Shown here: positions 12,551 through 40,338 of the stretch, piece after piece | Numbering within the stretch: the first letter of the stretch is position 1 | Layout of the letters: every line of letters begins with the position of its first letter | Source of the DNA: Tannerellaceae bacterium | GTDB lineage: Bacteria; Bacteroidota; Bacteroidia; Bacteroidales; Tannerellaceae | Direction of reading: 5' to 3' | NCBI GenBank assembly: GCA_036654795.1 | Contig: JAVVRI010000002.1 | Span: 1 to 47,786 of the forward strand | Length of the DNA stretch: 47,786 nucleotides | Notes under the pieces: generated by a model | The model's database searches: none | Seen by the model: the letters and a program-made list of their open reading frames with translations, nothing else | Told to the model about the DNA's origin: nothing | Made by a program: the position numbers and the translations under genes

Positions 12551-12553
12551 GCT

Positions 12554-14409: not shown

Positions 14410-14411
14410 GT

Positions 14412-16079: not shown

Positions 16080-16094
16080 AATGTTGTTGTTCTA

Positions 16095-18400: not shown

Positions 18401-18426
18401 AACCTTTGTGTTTTTATAATCCGATA

Positions 18427-18434
18427 CAAATATA
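18427..18434 (-). promoter_or_regulatory. Candidate -7 box (TATATTTG on the minus strand) for the men operon
   Basis: Plus-strand CAAATATA lies 26 nt upstream of ATG 18400. Confidence 0.45.
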
Positions 18435-18497
18435 CAGAATGTTTTTTCCCTCTTTTCTATCTTGGCGCGGTTTTGTTTGAAATAGTCTGCTTCCGGA

Positions 18498-21927: not shown

Positions 21928-22066
21928 GCATAATAGTATATAGGCAAAAAGGTAAAACATCCTATCTTTTTCATTAAATTTTAGCGTGGTTGCTCTCTAT
22001 CCAATGGGGATGTTAAATTAATTAGTGTATGCTATACAACACACTTAACGTATTTTTGCATACTTC

Positions 22067-22099
22067 TTGCACATCTTTAATCGTCTGCTCTTATATTTG
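22067..22099 (+). promoter_or_regulatory. Candidate promoter of the IclR-headed cluster
   Basis: TATATTTG (22092-22099) is a perfect -7 box. A TTG at 22067-22069 lies 22 bp upstream. The ATG is 27 nt downstream. Confidence 0.45.
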
Positions 22100-22105
22100 A
22101 TATAA

Positions 22106-22126
22106 ATCTGAAACATTATTTCATAT
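22106..22126. promoter_or_regulatory. 21-bp imperfect palindrome ATCTGAAACATTATTTCATAT (core TGAAAC-ATT-ATTTCA), a candidate IclR autoregulatory operator
   Basis: 8 of 10 arm positions are self-complementary. It lies between the -7 box and the IclR ATG (22127). The core resembles my recollection of the KdgR (IclR-family) box TGAAAC-N3-GTTTCA. Confidence 0.4.
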
Positions 22127-22936
22127 ATGGAAAGCACTGTGTTAAATGTGGAAAAGACGGATGAAAGCTATAAGGTGCCTAATCTGGAAAAAGGTATCGC
22201 TGTGCTGGAGTATTTGTCGCTCCATCCAGCAGGAGAAACTTTGCAGGAAATTAAGTCTGTGCTCGATATATCCCAAACAACTGCCTACCGTATATTAAAT
22301 ACGTTGGTTCGTTTGAATTATCTATTGTATAATGAAGACACCAAGCGTTACAGCCTTTCTCGCAAGATGCTTACGCTGGGTTTCCGGTCGCTGAATGAAC
22401 ATAATTTGCTTGAAACTGTTTTGCCTCGTTTACGCGATTTACGTGATGCTGTAAAGGAAACAGCTTGTTTCGGTGTGCTGGGAAATGAAAAGGGGATTTT
22501 TATTGAACAGGCGCAAGGACACCATACTTTTCGTTTTGTGCTTTCTCCCGGCAAACCGTTCGATTTGCATTGTTCTGCTCCCGGCAAAGCCATCATGGCT
22601 TACCTCCCGAACACAGTGCGCGATCGCTATCTTTCTATCATGGAGTTTACTCCTTATAATAGCCGCACGATTACTACCCAAGAAGCCTATTTGAAAGAAC
22701 TAGAACAGGTGCGCAAGCTTGGTTATTCGATGGATAACGAGGAGGAGCTGAATGGCGTGATTTGCATTGGTGCGCCGATTTTTAATTATACCGGTTACCC
22801 GTGCGGTGCTATTTGGATATCAGGTCCGAAAGATCGTCTGACGAAGGAGGTAATCCGCGCTTCTTCCCAGCAGATAAAAGAGGTTGCTAATACTATTTCT
22901 ACGGAATTAGGTTACGGTAAAATATATAAGAAATAA
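22127..22936 (+). CDS. IclR-family transcriptional regulator
   Basis: 269 aa. N-terminal wHTH LEKGIAVLEYLSLHPAGETLQEIKSVLDISQTTAYRILNTLVRLNYL. The C-terminal IclR effector domain carries RTITTQEAYLKELEQVRKLGYSMDNEEELNGVICIGAPIF. Confidence 0.85.
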   Translation: MESTVLNVEKTDESYKVPNLEKGIAVLEYLSLHPAGETLQEIKSVLDISQTTAYRILNTLVRLNYLLYNEDTKRYSLSRKMLTLGFRSLNEHNLLETVLPRLRDLRDAVKETACFGVLGNEKGIFIEQAQGHHTFRFVLSPGKPFDLHCSAPGKAIMAYLPNTVRDRYLSIMEFTPYNSRTITTQEAYLKELEQVRKLGYSMDNEEELNGVICIGAPIFNYTGYPCGAIWISGPKDRLTKEVIRASSQQIKEVANTISTELGYGKIYKK

Positions 22937-22955
22937 CACACAATACACTAGTATC

Positions 22956-24734
22956 ATGAACACACGAAAATATATAAGAACACAGTTGATTACGGCCTGC
23001 TTGATTGGCTTGTCTGTTGCTTTTGCAGCGGCGGGCAATCCTCCATTGTTTACTACGGACGTGGTGCTGAATGCGAAAGGGGAGATGCTTTTTGCACAAA
23101 AAGGTACAAAACGGATAGATGTTTTTTCAACAGACGGAAAAACATTGTTGCGTTCTTATCCGCTGGACGAAGCTCCTACGGGTATTCTTTTGGATGGAGA
23201 CAAGGCGTATGTAACCACCTTTGGCTCTACAGGGCATTTGCAGATTCTGTTGTTGGAGACGGGTAGGGTAGAGGCTTCCATCCATACTGGCTCCGGCTCC
23301 TGTCACCCGATGTTTGGGGTGGACAAGAAAAAAATCTATGTCTGCAACCAGTTTGATAACAATGTGGTAGAAGTGGATTTGGCTCAGCGTAAAGTGGTGC
23401 GTAGTGCCAAGGTGCTGCGCGAACCCAAATCGGCTGTGCTTAGCAAAGATGGCAAATATATGTTTGTGCCCAACTTCCTGCCTGCCCAGCGTGCGGATTT
23501 GGATGTGGTCGCTGCGGCCGTCTCGGTTATTAAAATGGATGACTTCACTAAGGTAAAAGATATTCCGTTGGCAAATGGTAGCAATGCTTTGCGTGGTATT
23601 TGTATCACGCCGGATGGGAAGTATATTTATGTATCCCATAATTTGGGACGTTTCACCGTTCCGACCTCGCAGTTGCAACAAGGATGGATGAACACGAGTG
23701 CATTTAGTGTGATCGATGTCGCTGCTCAGTCGTTTGTCGGAGCCGTTCTGGTGGATGAGCCGGATCGTGGTGCAGCCGGTATATGGAGCATCGCTTGTAA
23801 CAACGAAAAGATATTTATCAGCCATAGTGGTACGCATGAGATTAGCGTGATTGATCATCAAGCTATGCTCGAACGGTTCCTTGCATATAAGGATAAAAGC
23901 CGTTTGGATTATGATTTGAACTTTCTATACGGTTTGCGTGAACGAATACCGGTTAGCGGTAATGGTCCGCGTTGTCTGCTTCTGGCAGGCAATCAACTGA
24001 TTGTTCCTACTTACTTTGCCGATGTGCTCAATGTGATGGATATTCAAACAAACGTAATGAAGTCTGTCGAGTTGAATCCCGGTCGTACGGAAACAGAGGA
24101 ACAGAAAGGTGAAAAATATTTTAATGATGCGATGAACTGCTTTCAAGGCTGGCAGAGTTGTAACGGATGCCATCCCGGCGATGCGCGTACCGATGGGATG
24201 AACTGGGACTTGATGAATGATGGTGTGGGTAATTCGAAAAACTGTAAAAGTATGCTTTATAGCCATGTTACGCCGCGTAACATGATTTCCGGTATTCGCG
24301 CTTCGGCTGAATTGGCTGTACGTGCCGGATTCAAATTTATCCAATTTTATGAAGTTTCTGAGGAGCAAGCCGCCGCGGTGGATGCCTACATGAAGGCTTT
24401 GCGCCCTGTGCCCAGTCCTTACTTGGTGAACGGTGAATTGTCGGACAAGGCAAAAGAGGGACGTAAGATATTTGATAAGCTCAAGTGTGGCGAGTGTCAT
24501 AGCGGTCCTTACTTTACCGACCTAAAGATGCACCGTATTGGTGAAAACGTGGAGTTCGAAGAGGGATGGGATACCCCTACGTTGGTTGAAGTATGGCGCA
24601 CGGCTCCCTACCTGTTTAATGGTCGGGCAGCCACGATGGAAGAGGTGTTTAGCGTTCATAAACACGGCATCGAAAAGAAGCGGGTTTCAAATAAAGAGAT
24701 AGAAGCATTAACAGAATATGTAAATTCACTTTAA
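22956..24734 (+). CDS. Secreted fusion of a beta-propeller (YVTN-like repeats) with a di-haem cytochrome c peroxidase/MauG-like domain
   Basis: 592 aa with a signal peptide. Repeated GK.(I/M)(Y/F)V... blades are present. Two CXXCH sites occur: CNGCH at nt 24159-24173 and CGECH at nt 24486-24500. The second lies in the CCP-typical context CGECHSGPYFTD...WDTPTLVEVWRTAPYLFNGRAATMEEV. Confidence 0.75.
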   Translation: MNTRKYIRTQLITACLIGLSVAFAAAGNPPLFTTDVVLNAKGEMLFAQKGTKRIDVFSTDGKTLLRSYPLDEAPTGILLDGDKAYVTTFGSTGHLQILLLETGRVEASIHTGSGSCHPMFGVDKKKIYVCNQFDNNVVEVDLAQRKVVRSAKVLREPKSAVLSKDGKYMFVPNFLPAQRADLDVVAAAVSVIKMDDFTKVKDIPLANGSNALRGICITPDGKYIYVSHNLGRFTVPTSQLQQGWMNTSAFSVIDVAAQSFVGAVLVDEPDRGAAGIWSIACNNEKIFISHSGTHEISVIDHQAMLERFLAYKDKSRLDYDLNFLYGLRERIPVSGNGPRCLLLAGNQLIVPTYFADVLNVMDIQTNVMKSVELNPGRTETEEQKGEKYFNDAMNCFQGWQSCNGCHPGDARTDGMNWDLMNDGVGNSKNCKSMLYSHVTPRNMISGIRASAELAVRAGFKFIQFYEVSEEQAAAVDAYMKALRPVPSPYLVNGELSDKAKEGRKIFDKLKCGECHSGPYFTDLKMHRIGENVEFEEGWDTPTLVEVWRTAPYLFNGRAATMEEVFSVHKHGIEKKRVSNKEIEALTEYVNSL

Positions 24735-24776
24735 AAACAAAGACGGGCTAATACTGTTAGTACCTCCAAAAGGAAT

Positions 24777-25871
24777 ATGAATTATTGCGAAAAGATACAT
24801 TATAATATATATATTGCCAAGAAAGCAGACTTTTTGACGATGGTCGATGAATTGTTGGCTCAGATACCCGAGAATGAATCGCTTTTGCGGTTAGCGTTTT
24901 TTGGTACACCGAGTAGTAATGAGGAGTATGTTGATCGGCGCGTTTTATTACGTGAAAAGATACGTCGCCGGTATGGCAATCATGAACCCGTGTTGAGTTA
25001 TGTATCTCAGCCACCACTTCATGCAACATTGATATTGGAGGTGCATAGTTATATCCCTGACGAAGATGATCATATAACCTATAAGAGCCTGCGGGGTTTT
25101 CCGTATGTGTTATTAGAAAACAGCGAAGGGCGGTTCCTTTTTGCAGGAGGCTTTCATGGGGATGTAATCAATTTCGCGGTGGAACAGCAGTCGATCGAAG
25201 TGTTTCGACTCGTTGCCGAAGTGATGCGTCGTGAAGGTTTCCCGATTAATAGCATTATTCGCCAATGGAACTACATCGAACAAATCACTCGTTTTGATGG
25301 CGAGAACCAGCACTATCAGACCTTTAATAATGCAAGAGGTGACTATTATGCTATGACGGGATGGCCGGATGGATATCCGGCTGCAACAGGTATTGGGGCA
25401 AATCTGGGTGGTATTCTAGTTGATCTTGATGCTGCAGTTTTTAAGGATTCAACTTGTTTCGCTACGCCGATAGATAATAAATTGCAAGTAGCAGCTCATG
25501 CTTATTCGGAACAAGTTCTGGCATCTGCTCGTCATCGTAAAGCAACGCCGAAATTCGAGCGCGCCAAGAGCATGACTTTTGGGGATCGGAGGTTGGTCTA
25601 TATTTCCGGTACGGCGGCCATTCGGGGAGAAGAAAGTTTGATTGGAGTAGGACTGGCGCGCCAGCTACACATTACGATGGAAAACATCGACCAACTGATT
25701 GGTCAGGCGCGTCTCACGATGCTTAGAGTTTATCTGAAAGAACCCTCTTTTTATGAAGAGGCAGAGGACTTGCTCGAAGCCTATCATTTGGGAATACCCA
25801 TATCTTATATGTGGGCTGACGTATGTCGTGATGAATTGCTTATTGAAATTGAAGGTATAGCTATTGAATAA
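24777..25871 (+). CDS. FkbO/Hyg5-type chorismatase-like protein (YjgF/RidA-fold C-terminus)
   Basis: 364 aa. IRQWNYIEQITRFDGENQHYQTFNNARGDYY and VYISGTAAIRGEES...ITMENIDQLI...LLIEIEGIA match my recollection of the FkbO/Hyg5/XanB2 family. At minimum it contains a RidA-like domain. The start could also be an internal Met (MVDELL). Confidence 0.5.
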   Translation: MNYCEKIHYNIYIAKKADFLTMVDELLAQIPENESLLRLAFFGTPSSNEEYVDRRVLLREKIRRRYGNHEPVLSYVSQPPLHATLILEVHSYIPDEDDHITYKSLRGFPYVLLENSEGRFLFAGGFHGDVINFAVEQQSIEVFRLVAEVMRREGFPINSIIRQWNYIEQITRFDGENQHYQTFNNARGDYYAMTGWPDGYPAATGIGANLGGILVDLDAAVFKDSTCFATPIDNKLQVAAHAYSEQVLASARHRKATPKFERAKSMTFGDRRLVYISGTAAIRGEESLIGVGLARQLHITMENIDQLIGQARLTMLRVYLKEPSFYEEAEDLLEAYHLGIPISYMWADVCRDELLIEIEGIAIE

Positions 25872-25903
25872 ATAAATTTTACTAACATATAAACAAAGAG
25901 AAA

Positions 25904-26641
25904 ATGAGAAAAGGATTAAATGTGAAAACAATGGTAATGGGGATGTTATTATTCTCCATGGTGGCTTGCACTGGCAAGACAAATGGTACGGCTGATTCAG
26001 CCGCATGTGCTGATTCGACACAATGTGCCGGATGTACTACAGATAAATCTAACTGTAAAAATAATAAAGAGATGACTTACACTAAAAAGTACACAAACGC
26101 CGACTTCTACAAGGACGGCAAGTTTAATCAGGAAGTAGCCATGCAGGCTTACAAGGATATGTTCGAATTTTACGGCGTTCCTTTTACTGAGTTAATGGCG
26201 AAAGACATGTGGGTAACAGACTTTGGTTTGGGCGATTTCGAAAACGTAGGTATGGGTGGTATCTTCTGGGTAAACGATTCAGAATACAAGTATTTCGCAC
26301 ATGCTATCTATCTGTTGCCTAACCAAATGATACCCGAACATGCGCACGTAAAAACAGCGTTTCCTGCCAAACATGAATCATGGATGGTTGAAAAAGGCTG
26401 GGTCTATAACTTCTCTGAAGTGGGCGACGAAACGCCAAATGCACCTGCAATTCCTGCCGGTCATGGTCCTATCAAGAGCAAAAACTTCACTGTACAGAAG
26501 GTGGGCGACGTGCTTCGTTTGAAGAAATTGGAAACATTCCACTTTATGATGGCAGGTCCCGAAGGAGCTGTGGTTGACGAGTGGGCATGTTATCACGACA
26601 ACGCAGGTCTGCGCTTTACAAACGCAAAGGCAGCACTTTAA
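25904..26641 (+). CDS. Lipoprotein with a Cys-rich linker and a cupin domain resembling D-lyxose/D-mannose ketol-isomerases
   Basis: 245 aa. Lipobox LFSMVAC|TGK. Linker ...AACADSTQCAGCTTDKSNC. Cupin metal-ligand pattern PEHAHV...KHESW...FHFM. Confidence 0.45.
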   Translation: MRKGLNVKTMVMGMLLFSMVACTGKTNGTADSAACADSTQCAGCTTDKSNCKNNKEMTYTKKYTNADFYKDGKFNQEVAMQAYKDMFEFYGVPFTELMAKDMWVTDFGLGDFENVGMGGIFWVNDSEYKYFAHAIYLLPNQMIPEHAHVKTAFPAKHESWMVEKGWVYNFSEVGDETPNAPAIPAGHGPIKSKNFTVQKVGDVLRLKKLETFHFMMAGPEGAVVDEWACYHDNAGLRFTNAKAAL

Positions 26642-26658
26642 TTCATATCTCATAAAAT

Positions 26659-26699
26659 CGCCGGCAGACATTCCCTACTAAGGGGATTGTCTGCCGACG
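26659..26699 (+). terminator. Long imperfect hairpin after the cupin gene (no U-tract)
   Basis: CGCCGGCAGACATTCCCT / AGGGGATTGTCTGCCGACG give about 16 pairs with 2 mismatches and 1 bulge around a 4-nt loop. It is followed by TTAAAAAC rather than a T-run. Confidence 0.4.
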
Positions 26700-26728
26700 T
26701 TAAAAACAACCTTAGTAAGTAATAACAC

Positions 26729-29700
26729 ATGAATAAATATAACTTATTAGTGTCGCTTTTCTTATCCTCCTCTTTTCTGGTATCGGCTGTGCCAAAGCAG
26801 AAGACGGTGGAGACGTGGATTGATGCTTCTGTAAAAGCGAAATCAGAATTGCGCGCACAACTTCAGAAGTCAGGTATGCCTGTTCTGTCTAAATGGATGA
26901 AGCATAAAAGTAATGCTGCTCCCTTTGTTGTAGACCTTAAGGGAGTAGATAAGTTGGTGCTGATCACTTCCGGAGGCCCTGACGGTTCCGAATACGATCA
27001 AGCTGTATGGGGTAACGCCCGTTTAATAGCAGCCGATGGTACTTCGGTGTGGTTGGATGAAATTCCTTTTGAATATGGCATAGCTGGTTGGGCTAAACCC
27101 AAGATGAATATCAATGCCTATGATAAAGAAATTTACATCGGTGGAAAACTCTATCCGCATGGTGTGTTTTGCCATGCGAACGGTACGCTGGTCTATCCTG
27201 TAAACAATAAATATGTACGCTTTGAAGCCGAAGTAGGTATAGAAGATACCTCTAGCGGAGGGAGCGTATTCTTTCAGGCGCTGAATGTGTTTCCTAAAAC
27301 GATTGGGGATGCGTTGATCCAGAAATATCCGAGTCAGATCGGTTTGTTGAGTGCCGGTATGGATGGATTGGATACTTGGTTGATTACACCCGATGCTTCT
27401 GTTGAAAAACAGGCTGTAGCGGACGTAGTAGCCAAACTGAAAGATGGCTCTTATTTTAAAAATGCCATGCAGACGATTGACGGAGAGAAAGATCTGAACG
27501 CGCAAATACGTAAATACCTAGAACTGTTTGAAAAGGTACAGGATGTATATACAGTACAATGCGACTTGCAGTGGCTCAATATGGATGCTATCAAGTTGGC
27601 CTTCGACGATATGAAGAAACAGAAAGGCTTTGATGTTGCCAAATACGAACCGATGTACAAAGAATTATTGCAGCTTCAGCAGAAAGGCTTTACCGGTATC
27701 TATAAAGGGGATGCCACAGCATTGGCTGATGCCCGTAAGGCATTGGATAATAAGCGTTCGATATTACTTGGCAACCCGTTGCTGAATGGCGATAAGGTTG
27801 TAGCTACTCACTTTAAATTGGGATCGCGTGCCCGCCAAGCTATGGCTCCCGATTTGGGCACACAGGCTAACAACTGGAGTAATCAAGAGTCTGCTCGTCG
27901 TATCGGTTTTGATGCTGAGATTGTGGAACTGAGTAATCTGCGCGGTGACATCAAAACACGTAGCGTATACAAAGCACCGAATGCCTCTTCTATTGCTGAC
28001 CTGCGTCTGCATTGGGATGGCGACCGGATGATGTTTACACAAACAATGCCCGACAAACGTTGGAATGTATTTGAAGTGAAGATGGATGGAACCGGATGCA
28101 AACCGTTGATTGAAAACGAAGAGCCGGATCTGGAATTCTATGACGGAACTTATCTACCCGACGGACGCATTATTGCAAACTCGAATATTGGTTATCAGGG
28201 TGTTCCCTGCGTAAGTGGTGACGACCCTGTCGGCAACATGGTGCAGTACGATCCGAAGAGCAAGACGCTGCGTCGTTTGACTTTCGATCAGGATGCCAAC
28301 TGGAATCCGGTAGTGATGAATAACGGTCGTGTGATGTATACTCGTTGGGAGTACACGGACTTGACGCACTACTATTCACGTATCATTATGCACATGAATC
28401 CGGACGGAACGGAAAATAAAGCGCTTTATGGTAGTGGCTCTATGTTCCCGAATAGTACGTTCGACGTACAACCTCTTCCGGGACATTCTTCTGCTTTTGT
28501 AGGTGTTATTTCCGGACACCACGGTATTGCTCGCTCGGGGCGTCTGATCGTATTCGATCCGACAAAAGCTCGTAAGGGAACAGCTGGTATTGTACAGGAG
28601 ATTCCTTATCGTAATCGTCCAGTAGTAGAGTTAATAAAAGATGAATTGGTAAATGGCGTATGGCCTCAGTTCATCAAACCGACTCCGCTAAATGACAAAT
28701 ACTTCTTAGTTGCTGCGAAGTTAGATCAGCAATCCTTGTGGGGTATCTATTTGGTGGATATCTATGATAATGTAACTTGTCTGATGCAGGCAGAAGGCGA
28801 AGGTTTTATCAGTCCCGTTGTACTGCGCAAGACGGCAACACCTCCGGCCATTCCAGACCGTGTGAAGCTGAATGACAAGGAAGCTACCGTCTTTATTCAG
28901 GACATTTACGAAGGAGAGGGTTTGATGGGTGTGCCTCGTGGTATCGTCAAATCACTCCGTCTGCATGCTTATGAATATGCTTATGTGAAGACGACTTCCG
29001 ATCATAACTGGCATGGTATTCAGAGTGGGTGGGACATCAAGCGTCAATTGGGTACGGTACCTGTTGAGTCGGATGGTTCTGTGATCTTTAAAGTTCCGGC
29101 CAATACGCCTATCTCCATTCAACCGTTGGATGAAAACGGAGTTGCCATTCAATGGATGCGTAGCTGGTTTACAGCACAACCGGGTGAAGTAGTTTCTTGC
29201 GTAGGTTGCCATGAAGATCAAAATCAGATCCCGATGCCGAAGCGTGTCATTGCTTCTCAGAAGGCTCCTTCCCGATTGGCTACCCCTGAAGGTGGTGTCC
29301 GTTCGTTCACATTCGACCTCGAGATACAACCTATTTTGGATCGTGCTTGTATTGCCTGCCATAATGGTGAAGGTAAAGCGTTCGATATGCGTGGTGGTAA
29401 GAAGGATAAGCGTGGTTATGGTTCATCCTATCTAAACCTTCATCCTTACGTTCATCGTCAAGGAGGAGAAGGAGATATGGTCGTATTGCAACCTTACGAA
29501 TATCATCCCAATACCAGCGAATTGGTTCGTATGTTGAAGAAGGGTCATCACAATGTGAAACTGACCGATGCCGAATGGTTGAAACTTTATAACTGGATTG
29601 ATTACAATGCTCCGGATAAGGGTTATTTCAATGCCAATAAGATCACAGACTTCCCTTATAAGGGTTTCGATCAGATTGCTCGTCGTAAGGAGTTGACCGA

Positions 29701-30724: not shown

Positions 30725-30744
30725 AAAATGATGAACAGATAGTT

Positions 30745-30781
30745 GCCGGAGCGGGGAGGGTTTCCCCTTTACCGTTCCGGC
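30745..30781 (+). terminator. Terminator-like hairpin followed by a T-rich stretch
   Basis: Outer stem GCCGGAGCGG (30745-30754) pairs with CCGTTCCGGC (30772-30781), including one G-U pair. An inner GGG/CCC stem lies around a TTT loop. GATTTATCTTTT follows. Confidence 0.45.
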
Positions 30782-30815
30782 GATTTATCTTTTAAGATTG
30801 AACTAAAACGGTCAA

Positions 30816-33266: not shown

Positions 33267-33297
33267 CCTATATAAAAACATTTAAAACAAAGTAATC

Positions 33298-33612
33298 ATG
33301 AGAACATTTAATCACGTAGGTATTCCTACAACTGAAAGTAAAGCAGGAGCAGTCTATAACGAAGGTCTGAGTGTCTGGCTGACTGATTATAGTAAAAGTA
33401 CAAACCGCATTGAATTTTTAAAGTTTGAGGCAGGTAGCTGCATGCCTGAATTGATTCAAACAACAGCTCATTTGGCTTATACCGTGCCTTGTCTCAAAAC
33501 AGAACTGGAAGGTAAAAAGGTCATCTTTGGCCCGGCTGTATGCGACGAGCATCTGACGATTGCTTTTATCGAAGAAGAGGGTATTGCTATTGAAATTATG
33601 GAAATTAAATAA
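33298..33612 (+). CDS. Small VOC (glyoxalase/bleomycin-resistance fold) family protein
   Basis: 104 aa. The FNHVGIPT start, HLAYTV and IAFIEEEGIAIEIMEI fit the paired beta-alpha-beta-beta-beta module pattern. Confidence 0.5.
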   Translation: MRTFNHVGIPTTESKAGAVYNEGLSVWLTDYSKSTNRIEFLKFEAGSCMPELIQTTAHLAYTVPCLKTELEGKKVIFGPAVCDEHLTIAFIEEEGIAIEIMEIK

Positions 33613-33635
33613 TAAAAAAAAGGAGGAATCACATT

Positions 33636-34652
33636 ATGTCAGCTATTAAAACAAAATTCATTAACGAACCGGATCAGATCACACCCGAATTGCTGGAAGG
33701 TTATGTGTTAGCTTATAAAGATAAAGTAAAATTGGCTAGTGAGAATATCGTCGTACGCGTACAGCCGAAGAGCGAAGACAAAGTGGCTGTTGTTACTTTG
33801 GGCGGATCTGGACACGAACCTGCCTTGAGCGGTTTCGTTGGCGAAGGTATGTTGGACTGTTCCGTAGTGGGCGATGTTTTTGCTGCTCCAGGTGCACAAC
33901 GTCTTTTTCAGGCTTTGCAACTGATGAAGCGCGAAGCTGGTATCCTGTTGGTGGTGCTTAACCATTCCGGCGACATTATGAGTGCAAACATGGCTTGCCA
34001 GTTGGCTGCCCGCGTAGGTATCAAAGTAAAGCAAATCATTACACACGATGACATTAGTGCTGGTGTAGGTACGGACAATAACGATCGTCGTGGTCTGGCT
34101 GGTTGCGTTCCGTTATATAAAATATTGGGCGCTGCCGCTGAAGAAGGCAAATCATTGGACGAACTGATCGAAATAGGCGAACGTTTCAATAACAAATTGG
34201 CTACACTGGCTGTGGCTATGCGCTCATGTACACACCCGCAGAATGGTGGTATCATTACCGACCTGCCCGAAGGCGTGATGGAGATTGGTATGGGACAGCA
34301 TGGTGAAGGTGGTGGCGGTTGCCAACCTCTTGTGTCGGCTGACGCTACTGCCACCCAGATGATCGATTTGCTTTGTCAGCAATTGAAACCGGCAGCCGGA
34401 GACAAGATGCTTCTTGTCATCAATGGCGTAGGTGCTACGACCCACATGGAGCTAAACATCATCTTCCGTAAAGCTTATATGGAGCTTGAAGCCCGTGGCC
34501 TCGAAGTTGCAGAAAGCCGTATTCAGGAGATCTTGACCGTACAGGAACAGGCTGGTTTCCAGATGATCCTTGCCGGACTGGATGCTGATCATATCGACTA
34601 TTTGAAGAACAAACGCTCCGATGCTCCTTACTGGACTGTTATCGGCAAATAA
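33636..34652 (+). CDS. dhaK: DhaK-type (dihydroxyacetone/ketose kinase) substrate-binding subunit
   Basis: 338 aa. LGGSGHEPALSGFVGEGMLDCSVVGDVFAAP and EIGMGQHGEGG are DhaK signatures. An AGGAGG sequence lies 9 nt upstream of the ATG. Confidence 0.85.
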   Translation: MSAIKTKFINEPDQITPELLEGYVLAYKDKVKLASENIVVRVQPKSEDKVAVVTLGGSGHEPALSGFVGEGMLDCSVVGDVFAAPGAQRLFQALQLMKREAGILLVVLNHSGDIMSANMACQLAARVGIKVKQIITHDDISAGVGTDNNDRRGLAGCVPLYKILGAAAEEGKSLDELIEIGERFNNKLATLAVAMRSCTHPQNGGIITDLPEGVMEIGMGQHGEGGGGCQPLVSADATATQMIDLLCQQLKPAAGDKMLLVINGVGATTHMELNIIFRKAYMELEARGLEVAESRIQEILTVQEQAGFQMILAGLDADHIDYLKNKRSDAPYWTVIGK

Positions 34653-34666
34653 TAAATAATAACGCT

Positions 34667-35281
34667 ATGAAACAATTAACAACAGATGCTTTCAAAACCA
34701 TGCTTCAGCATGCGTTGACACAGATTAAGGCTCGCGAAGATGAGTTCTCAAAGTTGGATGCCGTGATTGGTGACGGCGACCATGGTATGGCCATCGTTTC
34801 TGCTTTTTCCGTAGCTGTGGAAGCAGCAGAGAAAGGAACAGAGTTTAAGGCCATGCTTAATGATATGGGCTTTGGTGTTATGCTGGCAACGAGTGGCTCA
34901 ACCAGTACCTTAATGGGTGCCTTCTTCTTGGGTATGAGCGATCATGCTGCTGGTACGGAGCTGGATGCTACTGCTGTAAAGGCGATGTTTGCTGGTGGAC
35001 TAGCAAACATACAACAACAGACCAAAGCCCAGAAGGGGGATAAAACGATGATGGATGCTCTTATTCCTGCTATCGAAGCAATGGAAGCTTGTACGTCGGA
35101 CGATGTGAAAGAGATACTGACCGCCGGTGCCACGGCTGCTCTTGCCGGAGCCGAAGCTACTATACAAATGAAGGCAAATTTCGGACGCGCGCGCAACTAT
35201 GGTGAACGCTCTATCGGTTATGCGGACAGCGGCGCTACTTCTTGGAGTTGCATGCTGGCCTCTTTCGCTGAAGCTTTTTGA
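34667..35281 (+). CDS. dhaL: DhaL-type nucleotide-binding subunit of the DhaK/DhaL kinase
   Basis: 204 aa. LDAVIGDGDHGMA (Mg-nucleotide-binding Asp cluster) and GDKTMMDALIPA are present. Confidence 0.85.
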   Translation: MKQLTTDAFKTMLQHALTQIKAREDEFSKLDAVIGDGDHGMAIVSAFSVAVEAAEKGTEFKAMLNDMGFGVMLATSGSTSTLMGAFFLGMSDHAAGTELDATAVKAMFAGGLANIQQQTKAQKGDKTMMDALIPAIEAMEACTSDDVKEILTAGATAALAGAEATIQMKANFGRARNYGERSIGYADSGATSWSCMLASFAEAF

Positions 35282-35327
35282 CCTCAGATAGCAATTAAAA
35301 TAATAAACAATAAAAACAACTTAAGTA

Positions 35328-36200
35328 ATGGCAGATTTAGATGATTTAAGAGAAGGTAACGACTTTGGTGTAGGAGTATCCTCTCAGAACCAGAGTTTTC
35401 ATGTAAAGGGTGCGGCCAACCAAGCTTGGGGCATGAAGGATCGCTTGTCGCGCATATTCAATCCCGAAACAGGTAAGGCCGTTATGCTGGCTTTCGACCA
35501 TGGTTTCATTATGGGGCCTACCTCCGGATTGGAGCGTATTGACCTCAATATTGTACCTCTGATTGAGTATGCTGACTGCTTGATGTGTACGCGTGGTATT
35601 CTGCAATCTACTATTCCCGCAAACGTAAACAAGCCGATTTGTCTTCGTTCTGATGCTGGTACGACGATTTTGACAGAGCTAAACAACAACGTGCTAATCG
35701 ATATTGAAGATGCTATACGCATGAACGTATCTGCTATGGCTGTTATGTTGGCTATTGGCGATCCTGCCTTCGAAGCTACAACAGTTGCCAATCTGTTTAA
35801 AGCAGCAGACAAAGGAGCTCGTTACGGTATTCCTGTTATGGGAGTAACTGCAGTAGGCAAGCAAATGGCTCGTGACGCCCGCTACTTTGGTTTGGCCTCA
35901 CGTATTTGTGCTGAGAACGGTGCAAACATCGTGAAGACTTACTATTGCGAAGGCTTTGAGAAAGTAGCTGCTGCCTGCCCCGTGCCGGTAGTAATTGCCG
36001 GAGGTAAGAAATTGCCCGAAAAGGAAGCGCTGGAGTTATGCTACAACGCCATCAATGACGGTGCTGCCGGTGTGGACATGGGACGTAATGTATTCCAAAG
36101 TGCTCATCCTGTTGCTATGATTCAAGCAGTACGTGCCGTGGTACACGACGGATTAACACCCGACCAAGCCATGGAGTTATTCCGCGACATCGCAGAATAA
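35328..36200 (+). CDS. Class I aldolase of the DhnA/FbaB family, LsrF-like (LsrF is 3-hydroxy-5-phosphonooxypentane-2,4-dione thiolase)
   Basis: 290 aa. These segments align along the whole length with my recollection of E. coli LsrF: MADLDDLREGNDF..., WGMKDRLSRIFNPETGKAVMLAFDHG, GLERIDLNIVPL, ADCLMCTRGIL, GANIVKTYY, CPVPVVIAGGKKLPEKEALE and GVDMGRNVFQSAHPVAM. Confidence 0.7.
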   Translation: MADLDDLREGNDFGVGVSSQNQSFHVKGAANQAWGMKDRLSRIFNPETGKAVMLAFDHGFIMGPTSGLERIDLNIVPLIEYADCLMCTRGILQSTIPANVNKPICLRSDAGTTILTELNNNVLIDIEDAIRMNVSAMAVMLAIGDPAFEATTVANLFKAADKGARYGIPVMGVTAVGKQMARDARYFGLASRICAENGANIVKTYYCEGFEKVAAACPVPVVIAGGKKLPEKEALELCYNAINDGAAGVDMGRNVFQSAHPVAMIQAVRAVVHDGLTPDQAMELFRDIAE

Positions 36201-36259
36201 GCATAGGCATATTAGAGAATAAATATCACACAGATGATGTAGATCTAAATAGAAGTGTC

Positions 36260-36291
36260 CGCAGCTCTTATCTTTACGGAAAAGAGCTGCG
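36260..36291 (+). terminator. Rho-independent-type terminator after the LsrF-like gene
   Basis: 10-bp stem CGCAGCTCTT / AAGAGCTGCG with a 12-nt loop, followed by the T-rich TTCGCTTATTCTATTATTT. Confidence 0.6.
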
Positions 36292-36339
36292 TTCGCTTAT
36301 TCTATTATTTAACCATACATAATAAAACAAACACATACC

Positions 36340-37224
36340 ATGAATAAAGCTTATATGTTATTAATTGCTGCCCTACTGCTATTGGTCGGTACCTCTTGCC
36401 AACCTAAGGCAGAAAAGTTATTGCTGGGTGGTTCCGGTTGGAATAAAATAGTAATCATCGACAAAGAGACAAAGGCTATTGAATGGGAGCATCCCATGGA
36501 AGCTGGTTGGGAATGTAACTCCGTAGCCGCTACGACGGACGGGAACATCCTTTTCTCATACGCCAAAGGTGCCAAACTAATCACAAAGGATCATAAAGAG
36601 CTTTGGAATATACCTGCCCCTGAAGGTGCAGAGATGCAGACCGCCGCTATCCTGGCAGACGGCAACTTTTTGCTGGCTTGGTGCGGCCATCCGGCTACCA
36701 TTATGGAAGTATCGCCTAAGGGTGAAATGCTGAAAAAGGTAGAATACGAAACTGGTGTAGAAGCACCTCACGCACAGTTCCGCCACGTAAGCAAGGCGGC
36801 TAACGGCAATTATTTGATGCCTATCTTTGCCACTTCCGACGTGCGCGAAATAAGTCCCGAAGGTACATTGGTTAAGACGATCGCCCTCGAAGGTACTCCT
36901 TTCTGTATTGTTCCGTTAGCGAATGGAAACTCGCTGGCTGCTTGTGGCGATGCGCATAGCTATGTGGAGTTGGATGCAAACGGTGCGATTGTACGTAAAG
37001 TGAGCGGTACTGATATTGAAGGCACTTCTCTTTACTTTGTTGCCGAACTGTTACCCCTTGCGGATGGCAGTCTATACGTATGTAACTGGCAAGGACATGG
37101 AGGCGATGCTGCCGCAGGCACTTTCCCCCAATTGATCGAAGTGGACAAAACCGGCAAGATGATCTGGAGCCTAAACGACAATGCCGCTTTTGGCATGATA
37201 TCGGCTATCTGTCCGGTGAAGTAG
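36340..37224 (+). CDS. Lipoprotein, predicted small beta-propeller (family not identified)
   Basis: 294 aa. Lipobox LLLVGTSC|QPK. Repeated motifs of the type DGN(I/F)L...G....(V/I) suggest blades. Confidence 0.45.
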   Translation: MNKAYMLLIAALLLLVGTSCQPKAEKLLLGGSGWNKIVIIDKETKAIEWEHPMEAGWECNSVAATTDGNILFSYAKGAKLITKDHKELWNIPAPEGAEMQTAAILADGNFLLAWCGHPATIMEVSPKGEMLKKVEYETGVEAPHAQFRHVSKAANGNYLMPIFATSDVREISPEGTLVKTIALEGTPFCIVPLANGNSLAACGDAHSYVELDANGAIVRKVSGTDIEGTSLYFVAELLPLADGSLYVCNWQGHGGDAAAGTFPQLIEVDKTGKMIWSLNDNAAFGMISAICPVK

Positions 37225-37274
37225 GACTTTGCCCTTCCTGATCCAAGTATGTACTAAATAATACAATCAACAAT

Positions 37275-39158
37275 ATGAAGTTGCATCTTATCGACGTACT
37301 TATTATAGCACTCTACCTGGTGGTGATGGTCATCATCGGGTTGGTGCTTAAAAAGAAAGCGTCAAAGAATCTGGACTCTTACTTCCTGGGGGGTAAGAGT
37401 TTGCCTTTTTATATGCTGGGGCTGTCCAATGCCTCGGGGATGTTCGATATCTCCGGGACGATGTGGATGGTTTACCTTGCGTTCGTTTATGGATTAAAGA
37501 GCCTTTGGATACCTTGGCTGTGGCCGGTATTCAATCAAATCTTCCTCATGATATACCTTTCCATCTGGCTGCGCCGCTCGAATGTACTGACGGGAGCGGA
37601 GTGGATCCGTACGCGCTTCGGCTTCGGACGTGGGGCTACGCTTTCGCATACCATTGTGGTGATATACGCTGTGGTCGGTGTGTTGGGCTTCTTGAGTTAC
37701 GGCTTCATTGGTATTGGTAAGTTTATGGAGATTTTCTTCCCCTGGGAGATTGTGTCGCAATATGTACCTTTCGACGTGGCGCCTGAGTATGTACCGCATG
37801 TGTATGGCATCTTCTTTACTACCATTGCTACCTTCTATGTGATGATGGGGGGGATGTTGAGCATTGTCTGGACGGACGTGGTGCAGTTTGGTATTATGAC
37901 CGTTGCCGGTGTCGTGATTGCTGTGATTGCAATGATGAAGGTAACGCCTGAGATGCTTTCTGCTCATGTACCGGTAGGATGGGATACCCCTTTCTTTGGC
38001 TGGACGCTGGATATGGACTGGAGCCAGCTGATACCTGCCGTGACGGATAAGATGGCGGCAGATCAGTATGGACTCTTTACGATTGTCATCATGATGATGC
38101 TCTTTAAAGGAGTATTCCTTAGCATGGCCGGTCCGGCGCCTAACTATGACATGCAGAAAATTCTTGCCTGTAAGACACCGAAGGAGGCTGCCCTGATGAG
38201 TGGTTCCGTGCCGGTGATTCTGCTTATACCGCGCTATCTGATGATTATGGGTTTTGCCGTGTTGGCTATTGTCTTCTTTAGTGAAGACTTCCGGTCGATG
38301 GGTGCGGCGGTGGACTTTGAAACGATTTTGCCCCGTGCTATTGGCGAGTTTGTGCCGGTAGGGTTGGCCGGGCTGTTGCTGGCGGGATTGCTGGCTGCCT
38401 TTATGTCGACCTTCGCCTCTACGGTGAACGCCGCGCCGGCTTATCTGGTGAACGATGTGTATTTGAAGTATATTAACCCGAAGGCTTCTGCCCGCACGCA
38501 GATTCGTGCCAGTTACCTGATTTCGGTGCTGGTCGTGGTGGTCAGTACGGTGATAGGTCTCTTTGTGCTCAATATCAACTCGGTGTTACAGTGGATTGTT
38601 TCTGCTCTTTATGGTGGATATATCGCTGCCAACTTGTTGAAGTGGCATTGGTGGCGCTTCAACGGATATGGATACTTCTGGGGTATGTTGGCCGGCATCT
38701 TGGCCGCTATGATTGTGCCGCAGTTCTTCCCGAATACCTTGCCGCTCTATTATTTCCCGTTGCTAATGTTCGTATCGTTCATCGGTTGTATTGTGGGTAC
38801 GTTGCTGAACGAACCGACGGACGACGAGACACTGATCAACTTCTATGTGCGTGTTCGTCCGTGGGGCTTCTGGAAGCCGATAGCAGACAAGGCCGTGGCA
38901 CGTTATCCGAAGGTGGAGCGTAATACGCATTTTAAACGCGATATGTTTAACGTAGCCATCGGTATTGTCTGGCAGTTGAGTTTGACCATTATCCCGATGT
39001 ACATCGTAATCAAAGAGGGCATGCCGCTCTTTACTTCCATTATTATCCTAGGTGTAACAACGCTGATCTTAAAGAAGAACTGGTACGACAAGATGGATAA
39101 GGAGTCGAAGGAATACGACACGTTGATGGACGAACTGAAACTGGAAGAAAAGAAATAG
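37275..39158 (+). CDS. Sodium:solute symporter (SSS) family transporter
   Basis: 627 aa with about 13-14 hydrophobic helices and N-terminal LDSYFLGGKSLP typical of SSS carriers. Confidence 0.75.
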   Translation: MKLHLIDVLIIALYLVVMVIIGLVLKKKASKNLDSYFLGGKSLPFYMLGLSNASGMFDISGTMWMVYLAFVYGLKSLWIPWLWPVFNQIFLMIYLSIWLRRSNVLTGAEWIRTRFGFGRGATLSHTIVVIYAVVGVLGFLSYGFIGIGKFMEIFFPWEIVSQYVPFDVAPEYVPHVYGIFFTTIATFYVMMGGMLSIVWTDVVQFGIMTVAGVVIAVIAMMKVTPEMLSAHVPVGWDTPFFGWTLDMDWSQLIPAVTDKMAADQYGLFTIVIMMMLFKGVFLSMAGPAPNYDMQKILACKTPKEAALMSGSVPVILLIPRYLMIMGFAVLAIVFFSEDFRSMGAAVDFETILPRAIGEFVPVGLAGLLLAGLLAAFMSTFASTVNAAPAYLVNDVYLKYINPKASARTQIRASYLISVLVVVVSTVIGLFVLNINSVLQWIVSALYGGYIAANLLKWHWWRFNGYGYFWGMLAGILAAMIVPQFFPNTLPLYYFPLLMFVSFIGCIVGTLLNEPTDDETLINFYVRVRPWGFWKPIADKAVARYPKVERNTHFKRDMFNVAIGIVWQLSLTIIPMYIVIKEGMPLFTSIIILGVTTLILKKNWYDKMDKESKEYDTLMDELKLEEKK

Positions 39159-39186
39159 TATAACCATTTAATTTAAGACAAAGAAA

Positions 39187-40185
39187 ATGACAGACTTGAA
39201 GATTATTGGAAATGCCTTACCCGATATGCCGTGGGAGGAGCGGCCGGAAGGATGCAAAGACGTGTTATGGCGTTACTCCGCCAATCCGGTGATTCCTCGT
39301 GATATTACCTCTACCTCGAACAGCGTGTTTAACAGTGCCGTGGTGCCTTTCAAGGGTGGCTATGCCGGCGTGTTCCGCTGCGACGACACCAACCGACGCA
39401 TGCGTTTGCATGTGGGCTTTAGTGCTGATGCCATTCATTGGTCTATTGCAGAGGAGAAGTTGGAGTTTACCTGCGACGATGCGGAGATAGGCGAATTTGT
39501 TTATGCCTACGACCCGCGCGTATGCTTCATCGAAGATCGTTACTACATTACTTGGTGCAATGGCTATCATGGCCCGACGATTGGTGTGGCGTATACGTTC
39601 GACTTCGTAACTTTCCACCAGTTGGAGAATGCTTTCTTGCCTTTTAATCGTAACGGAGTGCTTTTTCCGCGCAAGATCAATGGTAACTTCGCCATGTTGA
39701 GCCGTCCGAGCGACAACGGACATACTCCCTTTGGTGACATATTTTATAGCGAAACACCGGATATGTGCTTCTGGGGAAAGCATCGCCATGTGATGTCTCC
39801 CGCTCCTTTCGAGCAGAGCGCTTGGCAGTGCATGAAGATTGGTGCCGGACCGATCCCGATCGAAACATCGGAAGGTTGGTTACTGATCTATCATGGTGTG
39901 CTTCATTCCTGCAACGGTTATGTGTATAGTTTTGGTGCTGCACTGTTGGACAGAGACGAGCCTTGGAAGGTAAAATACCGCTCCGGCCCCTATCTGCTTT
40001 CACCGCAAAAGGATTATGAATGTATGGGCGATGTGCCGAACGTAACTTTCCCGTGTGCCGCTCTGCATGATCCGGAGACGCGCCGCATTGCTATTTATTA
40101 TGGCTGTGCCGACACCGTGACTGGTCTTGCCTTTGGATATATTGACGAGATCGTTGAGTTTACGAAGAAGCATTCCATCATTTGA
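39187..40185 (+). CDS. GH130 beta-mannoside phosphorylase-like enzyme (short, GH130_2-like)
   Basis: 332 aa with no signal peptide. [45 protein letters not shown] and WLLIYHGV are GH130 five-bladed-propeller signatures as I recall them. Confidence 0.75.
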
Positions 40186-40252
40186 CTCTAAAGGAAATGT
40201 GACGTTTTTAGACGAACGGCAGTTGGTAGGATACCGCTCGTTAGCAATAGGA

Positions 40253-40314
40253 AAATGGCTCGTCAGCAAATAAAAATGGCTCACGAGCCATTTTTATTTG
40301 CTGACGAGCCATTT
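40253..40314. terminator. Perfect 30-bp inverted repeat (62-bp palindrome) between convergent GH130 and corA genes
   Basis: AAATGGCTCGTCAGCAAATAAAAATGGCTC (40253-40282), AC, then GAGCCATTTTTATTTGCTGACGAGCCATTT (40285-40314). The arms are exact reverse complements. Each arm contains AAATGGCTC twice. Confidence 0.7.
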
Positions 40315-40338
40315 AATCTTTCAAAACGGATGACATTA

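Follow-up and report, generated by a model that had tools for sequence, protein, structure and literature searches.

This work concerns a 47,786-nucleotide stretch of DNA (contig JAVVRI010000002.1, positions 1 to 47,786; assembly GCA_036654795.1), below called the window, from a metagenome-assembled genome (MAG) of a Tannerellaceae bacterium. At positions 22127-40185 it contains a run of 13 open reading frames (ORFs) in which the genes of two dihaem c-type cytochromes similar to hydrazine synthase (HZS) are found together with those of a dihydroxyacetone-type kinase and of an orthologue of the thiolase LsrF. We report the first 11 of these genes (g1-g11) as one conserved, previously undescribed gene set. 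The genes of the run are as follows:

22127-22936, + strand: g1, IclR-family transcription regulator, 269 aa (HTH_IclR and IclR_C, E 7e-41)
22956-24734, + strand: g2, exported beta-propeller and dihaem cytochrome c (CXXCH at residues 402 and 511)
24777-25871, + strand: g3, cytoplasmic FkbO/Hyg5-N and RidA-fold protein, 364 aa (PF21168 E 8e-11, PF01042 E 3e-7)
25904-26641, + strand: g4, lipoprotein with a Cys-rich linker and a cupin domain (PDB 7nzo E 3.6e-10, 2y0o E 4e-8; lipobox LFSMVAC)
26729-30724, + strand: g5, exported 1331-aa protein (Pfam NPCBM, propeller, HZS_alpha, FGE-sulfatase)
30816-33266, + strand: g6, fused CcsBA cytochrome c synthase of system II (ResB, PF05140; CcsA/Cytochrom_C_asm, PF01578)
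33298-33612, + strand: g7, minimal VOC (glyoxalase-fold) metalloenzyme, 104 aa (profile match to glyoxalase I, 2qh0 and 3hdp, E 9e-5)
33636-34652, + strand: g8, DhaK, substrate-binding subunit of a dihydroxyacetone-type kinase (Dak1 E 5e-95)
34667-35281, + strand: g9, DhaL, nucleotide-binding subunit (Dak2 E 3e-36)
35328-36200, + strand: g10, LsrF orthologue, 3-hydroxy-5-phosphonooxypentane-2,4-dione thiolase family (NF006081, 462.6 bits, cut-off 297)
36340-37224, + strand: g11, lipoprotein, six-bladed Mala_s_1-like beta-propeller (PF22701 E 2e-68)
37275-39158, + strand: g12, sodium:solute symporter, SSS (SSF E 2e-25)
39187-40185, + strand: g13, GH130 beta-1,4-mannosyl-N-acetylglucosamine phosphorylase, UhgbMP type (PDB 4udg)

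The original prediction had described 13 same-strand ORFs, and these coordinates proved exact. The gaps between them are 19, 42, 32, 87, 91, 31, 23, 14, 46, 139, 50 and 28 bp, i.e. as predicted with the exception of the first, which had been given as 20 bp. Every minus-strand ORF of at least 100 aa within the run is nested in a longer + strand ORF that has a family hit. Profile searches returned the predicted families in the case of IclR, FkbO/RidA, CcsBA, Dak1, Dak2, DeoC/LsrF, SSF and GH130, and the assignments of g4 as a lipoprotein cupin (7nzo match and lipobox) and of g7 as a VOC protein (glyoxalase I match and an invariant metal tetrad), neither of which has a Pfam hit, were upheld as well. 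The protein that had simply been called a lipoprotein, g11, could be refined to a Mala_s_1-like propeller.

The order of the domains in g5 is NPCBM, beta-propeller, a middle domain of the HZS alpha type with two CXXCH motifs (residues 824 and 874) and a C-terminal FGE-like domain. Residues 330-1060 gave a confident AF2 model (pLDDT 88, pTM 0.87), the top Foldseek match of which was HZS alpha (5c2v_A, E 5e-23, TM 0.63/0.60) over the whole chain; the next matches (TolB) covered the propeller only. The CXXCH pair of g5 aligns with the motifs of HZS haems alpha-I and alpha-II, and the alignment stops at the CXXCH motif, as was seen when the Tyr591 haem ligand and the Zn site were queried. The domains predicted for this protein are thus all present, but the FGE-like domain (RGGSYIERPKYSTAYS) has no Cys beyond residue 1181, so both catalytic cysteines are absent, and GGSYIERPKYST stands in place of the FGE Cys pair. 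Among solved structures, PvdO is the closest to it (E 2e-15). The name 'SUMF1/EgtB/PvdO nonheme iron enzyme' given in the database is unsupported as the function of g5 because the catalytic cysteines are missing (RGGSYIERPKYST). No Pfam hit to a DinB iron-binding domain of the EgtB type was found in g5 either, and an identity as FGE or as an EgtB-type sulfoxide synthase was rejected on these two grounds.

The other haem protein, g2, begins with a signal peptide (read by eye) and has the HZS beta and gamma chains as its best PDB matches (5c2v_B, E 1e-14, and 5c2v_C, E 5e-14, respectively). Its best NCBIfam match is hydrazine_BC, the model of the HZS beta-gamma fusion, with 87 bits against a cut-off of 1250. 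It had been predicted as a propeller with a dihaem CCP domain; the propeller and the two CXXCH motifs are there, and the protein as a whole is better described as resembling the beta-gamma fusion of hydrazine synthase. The g2 residue that aligns with Cys165 of HZS gamma, i.e. the third covalent haem link, is a Tyr, the Cys165 numbering being mapped by inference.

A search with full-length g5 returned relatives of at least 80% identity alone; the representative search was carried out with residues 132-1331. The alpha family comprises 2198 clusters (50% identity, E < 1e-30), and its hosts include Planctomycetota, Verrucomicrobiota, Kiritimatiellia, Armatimonadota, Hydrogenedentota and others. 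Of 47 genome loci centred on alpha, 9 have a beta-gamma gene next to the alpha-like gene, and such pairs are also found in metagenome loci. The haem pair is a broad family, one branch of which was recruited repeatedly as the front end of a smaller and more widespread cassette of cupin, VOC, DhaK, DhaL and LsrF genes. Co-located homologues of HZS alpha and beta-gamma outside anammox bacteria have been described, with no function given and without report of a link to catabolic genes (Hagglund et al. 2025, PMC12758564).

The cytoplasmic half of the set is built around g10, which is 57.7% identical to LsrF of E. coli over 284 residues and retains the Schiff-base Lys in a KTYY motif. At the superfamily level (Pfam) it is a DeoC/LacD class I aldolase. 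LsrF is a CoA-dependent thiolase, its products being DHAP and acetyl-CoA (PMC8016206). In L109, L130 and L133 (related loci are designated by L and a number) lsrF is directly followed by a Pta-Ack fusion, and in L006 and L094 by a SucCD-like pair, which makes five loci in all. Such neighbours argue for an acyl-CoA as the product of LsrF, which would be harvested for ATP, and lend indirect support to a CoA-dependent cleavage by g10. The Pta-Ack fusions are single polypeptides of about 700 aa, each right after lsrF (L109:10274-12397, L130:11243-13339, L133:3013-5057).

The metal tetrad of g7, H6/E44/H58/E99, is invariant across the 15 homologues that make up its profile, in agreement with the H/E/H/E pattern of VOC enzymes, and points to a putative metalloenzyme. 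VOC proteins of the g7 type occur in 22 of 86 LsrF loci, and in all 22 they are beside DhaK. We propose that g7 is a ketol isomerase and a functional analogue of LsrG. DhaK (g8) scores 282 bits against the DhaK equivalog, the cut-off of which is 406. A DhaM or PTS-type family was found neither among the 13 genes nor in the flanking ORFs examined, and the DhaK/DhaL pair is presumably ATP-dependent.

The minimal cassette, i.e. cupin-VOC-DhaK-DhaL-LsrF, also stands alone without haem genes, and Pta-Ack or SucCD-like genes often come after it. The neighbours of such haem-less cassettes include GFO_IDH_MocA genes in 11 loci, one of them with a 3-keto-disaccharide-hydrolase protein, and xylose-isomerase-like TIM-barrel genes. 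A further arrangement was seen in six well-flanked LsrF loci (L110, L119, L124, L126, L135 and L141; 68-76% identical to the query LsrF) that have no DhaK/DhaL nearby. The clusters of at least L110, L119 and L124 include Zn-ADH, GFO_IDH_MocA, LutA-like CCG and Fe-S/NarI-like proteins, and these DhaKL-free loci look like a third context for LsrF-type enzymes.

Gene-neighbourhood conservation had been named beforehand as the way to check the cluster, and co-localisation of the core genes of g1-g11 was seen in Bacteroidales as well as in high-GC contigs. Parabacteroides goldsteinii (L001) has the same 13 genes in unchanged order, with another gene as upstream neighbour and different flanks. The locus L004 ends after lsrF, at a hairpin and a convergent gene, and g11-g13 are absent. 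Other relatives show the genes in other orders: FkbO-cupin-CcsBA-alpha-betagamma-VOC-DhaK-DhaL-LsrF in Proteiniphilum (L003), where alpha is without the NPCBM and FGE domains; SusC-SusD-IclR-betagamma-FkbO-cupin-alpha-CcsBA-propeller in a mouse-gut MAG (L005); CcsBA-VOC-DhaK-DhaL-LsrF-alpha-CcsBA in L159; and IclR-propeller-cupin-VOC-DhaK-DhaL-LsrF-alpha/FGE-betagamma in L086 and L089 (GC 57%). More permutations of the core are found in L091, L114, L129, L140, L149, L150 and L155. In other words, the haem genes are immediate neighbours of DhaK-DhaL-LsrF and share their strand, and this holds for at least eight distinct orders in Bacteroidales and high-GC contigs.

The search beyond Bacteroidota used a Verrucomicrobiota LsrF as a query and an LsrF alignment against metagenomes, and the genes of the high-GC loci were called by tblastn mapping and a GC3-aware caller. 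The high-GC contigs that carry the core are taxonomically unassigned and their LsrF resembles PVC-type sequences; the core set seems to exist outside Bacteroidota too, with shuffled gene orders in several phyla. Its recurring members are IclR, the beta-gamma dihaem protein, the alpha dihaem protein with a dead FGE-like domain, the exported cupin, the exported propeller, VOC, DhaK, DhaL and LsrF, and the CcsBA and FkbO/RidA-like genes are add-ons found mainly in Bacteroidales. In the 26 metagenomic LsrF loci that are well flanked, i.e. by at least 3 kb on either side, DhaL was found 20 times, DhaK 19, cupin 13, VOC 13 and alpha 7 times. One Verrucomicrobiota locus (L006), in which DhaKL-LsrF is 4.4 kb from alpha and on the opposite strand, is compatible with chance alone and is not used as key evidence. 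On these grounds g1-g11 are very probably one functionally linked set.

The regulator g1 scores under all NCBIfam equivalog cut-offs. In L032, L043, L086, L089, L109, L139 and L149 an IclR protein similar to it (35-53% identity) is encoded at the head of the gene set or beside it.

Among the exported proteins, g4 has a D-lyxose/D-mannose-isomerase-like cupin without a Pfam hit. Of the 86 LsrF loci, 27 have a homologue of g4, and most of these homologues bear a Tat, Sec or lipoprotein signal (read by eye, like the signal or lipoprotein N-termini of g2, g4, g5, g11 and their homologues in general). Between the lipobox and the cupin of g4 there is a Cys-rich linker (CADSTQCAGCTTDKSNC; N-terminal region 25904-26070) with a weak NCBIfam match to DmsB, an Fe-S subunit. 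Such a linker after the lipoprotein signal was also seen in L146 and in several metagenome cupins, and was not seen in Proteiniphilum or L004. The propeller g11 is 62% identical to PDB 3NO2 (BACCAC_01654 of Bacteroides caccae, a structural genomics target without assigned function), which was also the match of its single-sequence structure model (pLDDT 71); given this identity, part of the system may be present in B. caccae. Exported homologues of g11 (25-63% identity) are found within the core set in L005, L020, L086, L089 and L114, and g11 probably belongs functionally to the periplasmic half of the core. The cupin and the propeller bear export signals in all loci with haem genes.

The CcsBA protein g6 has its WWD motif (WGRYWGWDPKE) at residues 710-720. 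It is found in L001, L003, L004, L005 and L146 and twice in L159; it was not found in the high-GC versions. Wolinella is known to have dedicated cytochrome c synthases (NrfI, CcsA1) whose genes adjoin those of the cytochromes they serve, and the g6 gene is likewise embedded among c-type cytochrome genes. A special haem motif as the reason for a private CcsBA was rejected, since, unlike in the Wolinella systems, all four motifs of the cluster are ordinary CXXCH; the CcsBA gene may have travelled along with the cluster. In a Bacteroidales-type metagenome contig (L159:234-12384) VOC-DhaK-DhaL-LsrF-alpha lies between two divergent paralogues of CcsBA, which have 78% and 47% identity to g6. The FkbO/RidA protein g3 has no signal peptide and scores 90 bits against TIGR04444 (cut-off 325); homologues or plain RidA proteins are present in L024, L089, L140 and L163.

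The last two genes stand apart. The match of g13 to UhgbMP (4udg, E 9e-199, 663 bits over 319 residues) makes it a near-identical orthologue, and it is missing from L004, L086 and L089, all of which retain the core. The symporter g12 was found only in the nearest relatives (L001, L002, L146); it probably pairs with g13, and might possibly serve as importer for the core pathway. Judged by homology, g12-g13 is the known pair for uptake and phosphorolysis of Man-beta-1,4-GlcNAc; it is confined to the nearest relatives and lies outside the conserved core. As in the module of UhgbMP and BT1033 (GH130_2, N-glycan core disaccharide phosphorylase), g13 is without a signal peptide and adjoins a transporter, but the likeness covers g12-g13 only. 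Of the two readings offered in the original prediction, the juxtaposition of modules therefore holds for g12-g13 only, as g1-g11 form one set; the conserved neighbourhood speaks strongly for the single pathway in the case of g1-g11, in which the oxidation chemistry is a proposal.

The intergenic features of the cluster and its right border are:

22051-22123, + strand: promoter/operator region upstream of iclR (two Bacteroidetes-type -7 boxes and an inverted repeat)
26659-26699, + strand: hairpin 1, intergenic (-27.3 kcal/mol, z -7.2 vs shuffles)
30745-30781, + strand: hairpin 2, intergenic, 3' of g5 (-31.9 kcal/mol, z -5.5 vs shuffles)
36260-36291, + strand: hairpin 3, intergenic, 3' of lsrF (-22.9 kcal/mol, z -6.4 vs shuffles)
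40249-40318, no strand assigned: long near-perfect hairpin in the GH130/CorA convergent gap (gap 40186-40338, -62.7 kcal/mol)

On the left the cluster is bordered by a 362-bp gap downstream of a UPF0597/SDH_alpha gene, and on the right by the long hairpin at 40249-40318, which precedes the convergent corA on the minus strand (40339-41412). The two -7 boxes (TAnnTTTG at 22051-22058 and 22092-22099) have no other + strand intergenic match in the cluster. The inverted repeat TGAAAC-ATT-ATTTCA at 22109-22123, directly upstream of iclR, is a candidate IclR operator, and the promoter block 5' of iclR is kept in P. goldsteinii (L001) and in the MAG L005. No riboswitch was found in the cluster by Rfam.

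The three hairpins were the only ones predicted for the run, which agrees with our folding: among the 12 internal gaps, these three alone fold below -7 kcal/mol. None has a T-run downstream, which is why a simple terminator scan does not list them; simple sigma-70 and terminator scans are uninformative for a Bacteroidales genome. Hairpin 1 is not at the equivalent position in L001 or L004. At the position of hairpin 2 both L001 and L004 have a hairpin too, of unrelated sequence; the position of hairpin 3 is kept in L001, and in L004 the hairpin there marks the operon end before the convergent gene. The hairpins after alpha and lsrF thus keep their position and not their sequence, so they are probably functional, and they would probably be attenuators or stabilisers, or, after lsrF, an ancestral terminator. 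Hairpin 2 had been suggested as a module border, which the comparison contradicts. The same suggestion for hairpin 3 fits the operon end in L004, but g11, which lies downstream of it, belongs to the core.

From the families, folds, export signals and genetic linkage described above we infer a substrate, an oxidant, a series of reactions and an operon structure. We regard it as an even question whether g1-g11 make up a single catabolic system under the control of IclR, its front end lying in the periplasm and its back end in the cytoplasm; any particular substrate is much less probable. In such a system g5 would be an alpha subunit of HZS-like fold that carries a glycan-binding NPCBM module and a non-catalytic FGE-like domain, and g2 its fused beta-gamma-like partner, both being dihaem c-type cytochromes the haems of which would be attached by the cluster's own CcsBA (g6). 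The two would be assisted by the lipoproteins g4, a ketol-isomerase-like cupin, and g11, the propeller. This front end might oxidise and isomerise a glycan-derived sugar to a hydroxymethyl-ketone or diketone: the ketose end would be formed by the exported cupin, and the HZS-like cytochromes would add a second carbonyl in the periplasm, a step that GFO_IDH_MocA neighbours might carry out in the haem-less loci. Peroxide, used through the CCP-like haem, is a guess as the oxidant. The NPCBM module, SusC/SusD in L005 and the glycoside hydrolases (GH78, GH95, GH127 and GH123) that neighbour related loci suggest that the substrate comes from a glycan.

After import of the periplasmic product, the VOC metalloenzyme g7 would carry out a ketol shift (enediolate chemistry, as in the LsrG reaction), g8 and g9 would phosphorylate the hydroxymethyl-ketone end with ATP, and g10 would cleave the resulting 3-hydroxy-2,4-dione phosphate with CoA to DHAP and an acyl-CoA, which would be acetyl-CoA if the substrate were a 5-carbon deoxy compound. 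The FkbO/RidA-fold protein g3 probably clears a side product that is a reactive enol or imine. Kinases of the DhaK type act on hydroxymethyl groups that adjoin a carbonyl, and this chemistry, together with a VOC enzyme suited to a ketol shift, makes the cassette a plausible non-orthologous analogue of LsrK/LsrG/LsrF acting on a 1-hydroxy-2,3- or 1-hydroxy-2,4-diketone. D-apiose, aceric acid and the substrates of ascorbate breakdown were considered and could not be fitted to LsrF chemistry. More broadly, HZS-like complexes might be a widespread periplasmic class of carbohydrate-modifying redox proteins that feed a 'diketose thiolysis' by cupin, VOC, DhaKL and LsrF in gut Bacteroidales and PVC-type bacteria, a generalisation that we put forward tentatively and consider rather doubtful.

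Several observations weigh against this scheme. The haem pair is not dedicated to the LsrF route, since only 1 of the 47 alpha-centred loci has DhaKL-LsrF nearby, and it is an optional front end, since 19 of the 26 LsrF loci are without alpha. An electron acceptor, a quinone link and a conserved inner-membrane transporter are not encoded in the cluster; the oxidant (H2O2 or O2) is a guess because the cluster has no electron partner and the host is an anaerobe. DhaK and DhaL are under the equivalog cut-offs, so the kinase substrate is not fixed, and the similarities of the cupin to isomerases (E 3.6e-10, no Pfam hit) and of the VOC protein (E 9e-5) are remote. Finally, the stable hairpins after g5 and g10 could end transcription.

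Four other explanations have to be weighed. Mere chance, i.e. haem genes, DhaKL/LsrF genes and the GH130 pair as unrelated modules on the same strand, could account for the stable hairpins after g5 and g10, for the separable g12-g13 and for the fact that each half occurs alone elsewhere. It does not sit well with alpha and beta-gamma standing next to DhaK-DhaL-LsrF on the same strand in at least eight orders and in distant lineages, or with alpha in 7 of the 26 well-flanked LsrF loci, where a few per cent would be the chance rate (a rough estimate, not computed). The comparative data largely refute chance juxtaposition, which we hold to be highly improbable. A role in nitrogen chemistry is very unlikely too, even though fold and subunit architecture are those of HZS and RidA-fold proteins recur (g3, two in L089, also L024, L140 and L163). 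The beta-gamma-like haem would here reduce a small N-oxide derived from NO or nitrite, the alpha-like haem would couple or remove nitrogen on an amino-sugar or amine, the RidA/FkbO proteins would hydrolyse imines and the keto product would pass to DhaKL/LsrF. The haem link Cys165 of gamma is a Tyr in g2, the non-anammox homologues are without key HZS residues and carry a CCP/MauG-type Trp (PMC12758564), the annotated ORFs of the window include no further nitrogen-cycle gene, and RidA-type genes are missing in many versions of the core.

The two remaining explanations concern the substrate, and both appear unlikely to about the same degree. The set might consume autoinducer-2 (AI-2), VOC-DhaKL-LsrF replacing LsrG-LsrK-LsrF in the conversion of 4,5-dihydroxy-2,3-pentanedione (DPD) to DHAP and acetyl-CoA; the cupin would interconvert AI-2 forms, and the haem proteins would make DPD-like diketones or remove oxidants. 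That g10 is a true LsrF orthologue, that kinase, small isomerase and thiolase follow the logic of the Lsr route (PMC8016206), that Pta-Ack 3' of lsrF in three loci suits an acetyl-CoA product and that L130 has an AI-2E-family permease close to the cassette all speak for it. On the other hand, the LsrB/ACD transporter, LsrR and LsrK are not in the cluster or the flanks examined, and linear DPD does not have the carbonyl beside its hydroxymethyl group that DhaK needs until it is isomerised. The context of glycoside hydrolases, SusC/SusD and NPCBM points to glycans rather than to a signal molecule, and two large dihaem proteins would be left without a role. Alternatively, the genes might break down a deoxy-sugar (L-rhamnose, L-fucose or 5-deoxyribose) in the classical order of isomerase, kinase and aldolase, with the cupin forming the ketose, DhaKL the ketose-1-phosphate and an LsrF-like class I aldolase DHAP and an aldehyde, while the haem complex would serve a separate step such as oxidation of an aldehyde or a lactone. 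The likeness of the cupin to D-lyxose/D-mannose isomerase, the GH78 rhamnosidase, GH95 fucosidase-family and GH127 neighbours and the DeoC/LacD class I aldolase superfamily of g10 would fit. Yet g10 is 57.7% identical to a proven thiolase and above the equivalog cut-off, genes that turn acyl-CoA into ATP (Pta-Ack, SucCD-like) stand at the operon end in five loci, the conserved VOC enzyme would have no role, and the cupin is exported, so the ketose would form outside the cytoplasm.

Compared with known systems, the periplasmic oxidation and cytoplasmic thiolysis that we prefer for g1-g11 would follow a known plan, i.e. periplasmic oxidation, uptake, phosphorylation and cleavage, with enzyme families not previously connected. 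Routes in which a sugar is oxidised in the periplasm and then taken up are exemplified by the glucoside 3-dehydrogenase or 3-keto-glycoside pathway and the gluconate/2-ketogluconate route of Pseudomonas. The cluster would share with them oxidation outside the cytoplasm followed by uptake and phosphorylation, and the haem-less cassettes the GFO_IDH_MocA, 3-keto-disaccharide-hydrolase and TIM-barrel genes; it would differ in having HZS-like c-type cytochromes instead of FAD, PQQ or NAD enzymes, and a thiolytic split to DHAP and acyl-CoA instead of re-reduction or the ED/PP routes. With the Lsr pathway of Enterobacteria (LsrK, LsrG, LsrF) it shares an orthologous terminal enzyme and the logic of kinase, small isomerase and CoA-dependent cleavage to DHAP and acetyl-CoA. 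However, its kinase is DhaK/DhaL rather than the FGGY-family LsrK, its isomerase has the VOC fold and is not of the LsrG type, its regulator is IclR, and it adds an exported cupin, a propeller and two dihaem cytochromes in a glycan rather than a quorum-sensing context. The Pfam and NCBIfam hits of the 13 genes and the flanking ORFs examined include no LsrK, LsrG, LsrACDB or LsrR, and identity with the Lsr operon was rejected for that reason.

As to anammox HZS, the alpha architecture of propeller, middle haem domain and second haem (TM about 0.6 to 5c2v_A) and the partner of propeller and CCP-like dihaem domain, fused as in Scalindua, are the same, and both genes are co-located. In contrast, Cys165 of gamma is replaced by Tyr, alpha has gained NPCBM and FGE-like domains, anammox partner genes are absent, the host is a gut Bacteroidales and the haem pair is linked to sugar-type catabolic genes. 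Among the annotated ORFs of the window no HAO/HDH-type gene was found. Identity as a hydrazine synthase was rejected on the Tyr, the missing partner genes and the residues of the non-anammox homologues, which are without key HZS residues (PMC12758564).

The cluster resembles polysaccharide utilisation loci (PULs) in its exported lipoproteins, its carbohydrate-binding module and its co-located glycoside hydrolase and transporter genes. It differs from them in having no SusC/SusD, HTCS or ECF/anti-sigma genes, in its IclR regulator and in a core common to non-Bacteroidota without Sus systems. The absence of PUL hallmarks noted earlier is thus correct within 22127-40185, and the identity as a canonical PUL was rejected as there is no SusC/SusD in this interval, but the related L005 does have SusC/SusD directly upstream of iclR. 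In that locus (L005:3-5091) the propeller comes right after CcsBA, with no VOC-DhaKL-LsrF between them. In the literature search we found no paper describing the gene combination and none mentioning LsrF together with DhaK, so the earlier statement that no characterised pathway combines these families held up.

To our knowledge, HZS-like alpha/beta-gamma complexes have so far been characterised only in anammox bacteria, and we know LsrF only from the destruction of a quorum signal. The present linkage gives a first functional context to the non-anammox relatives of hydrazine synthase, the role of which is an open question (PMC12758564), and P. goldsteinii is a culturable, genetically tractable host for HZS-like proteins. 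It also suggests that a widespread catabolic cassette which yields energy ends with LsrF. If diketose thiolysis is real, oxidised sugars or AI-2-like diketones would be converted to DHAP and acyl-CoA, with ATP gained via Pta-Ack or SucCD, and the role of LsrF would be primarily metabolic, AI-2 processing being a special case. A haem-dependent periplasmic sugar oxidation would be a new mode of glycan use for Bacteroidales, possibly tied to peroxide or micro-oxic mucosal niches, and an AI-2-like substrate would mean a new signal-quenching route in the gut.

A few observations were made elsewhere in the window. A menaquinone-biosynthesis (men) operon lies at 11528-18541 on the minus strand, comprising MenE-like, MenC, an ORF without annotation at the place of MenB, MenD, MenF and a fusion of HAD and 4HBT thioesterase. 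The men operon has a GC content of 55-59%, against 44-50% for the cluster and 42% for the start of the window; a mobile element upstream, to which this jump had pointed, was ruled out as the region is the men operon. An SF1 helicase-like gene (AAA_11/AAA_12, 18498-20387, minus strand) shares 44 bp with the beginning of the HAD-thioesterase ORF (region 17168-20387), and the start codon of the latter may have been called too far upstream. The sole Rfam hit in the window is FopS, a small RNA of Bacteroidetes (RF04319), at 47522-47594 on the + strand (72.6 bits, gathering threshold 56). At 3596-9863 on the minus strand a GH84 beta-N-acetylglucosaminidase with CBM32 is followed by two paralogous DUF3857/transglutaminase-like genes, which together with GH130 suggests a neighbourhood of host-glycan (N-/O-glycan) foraging.

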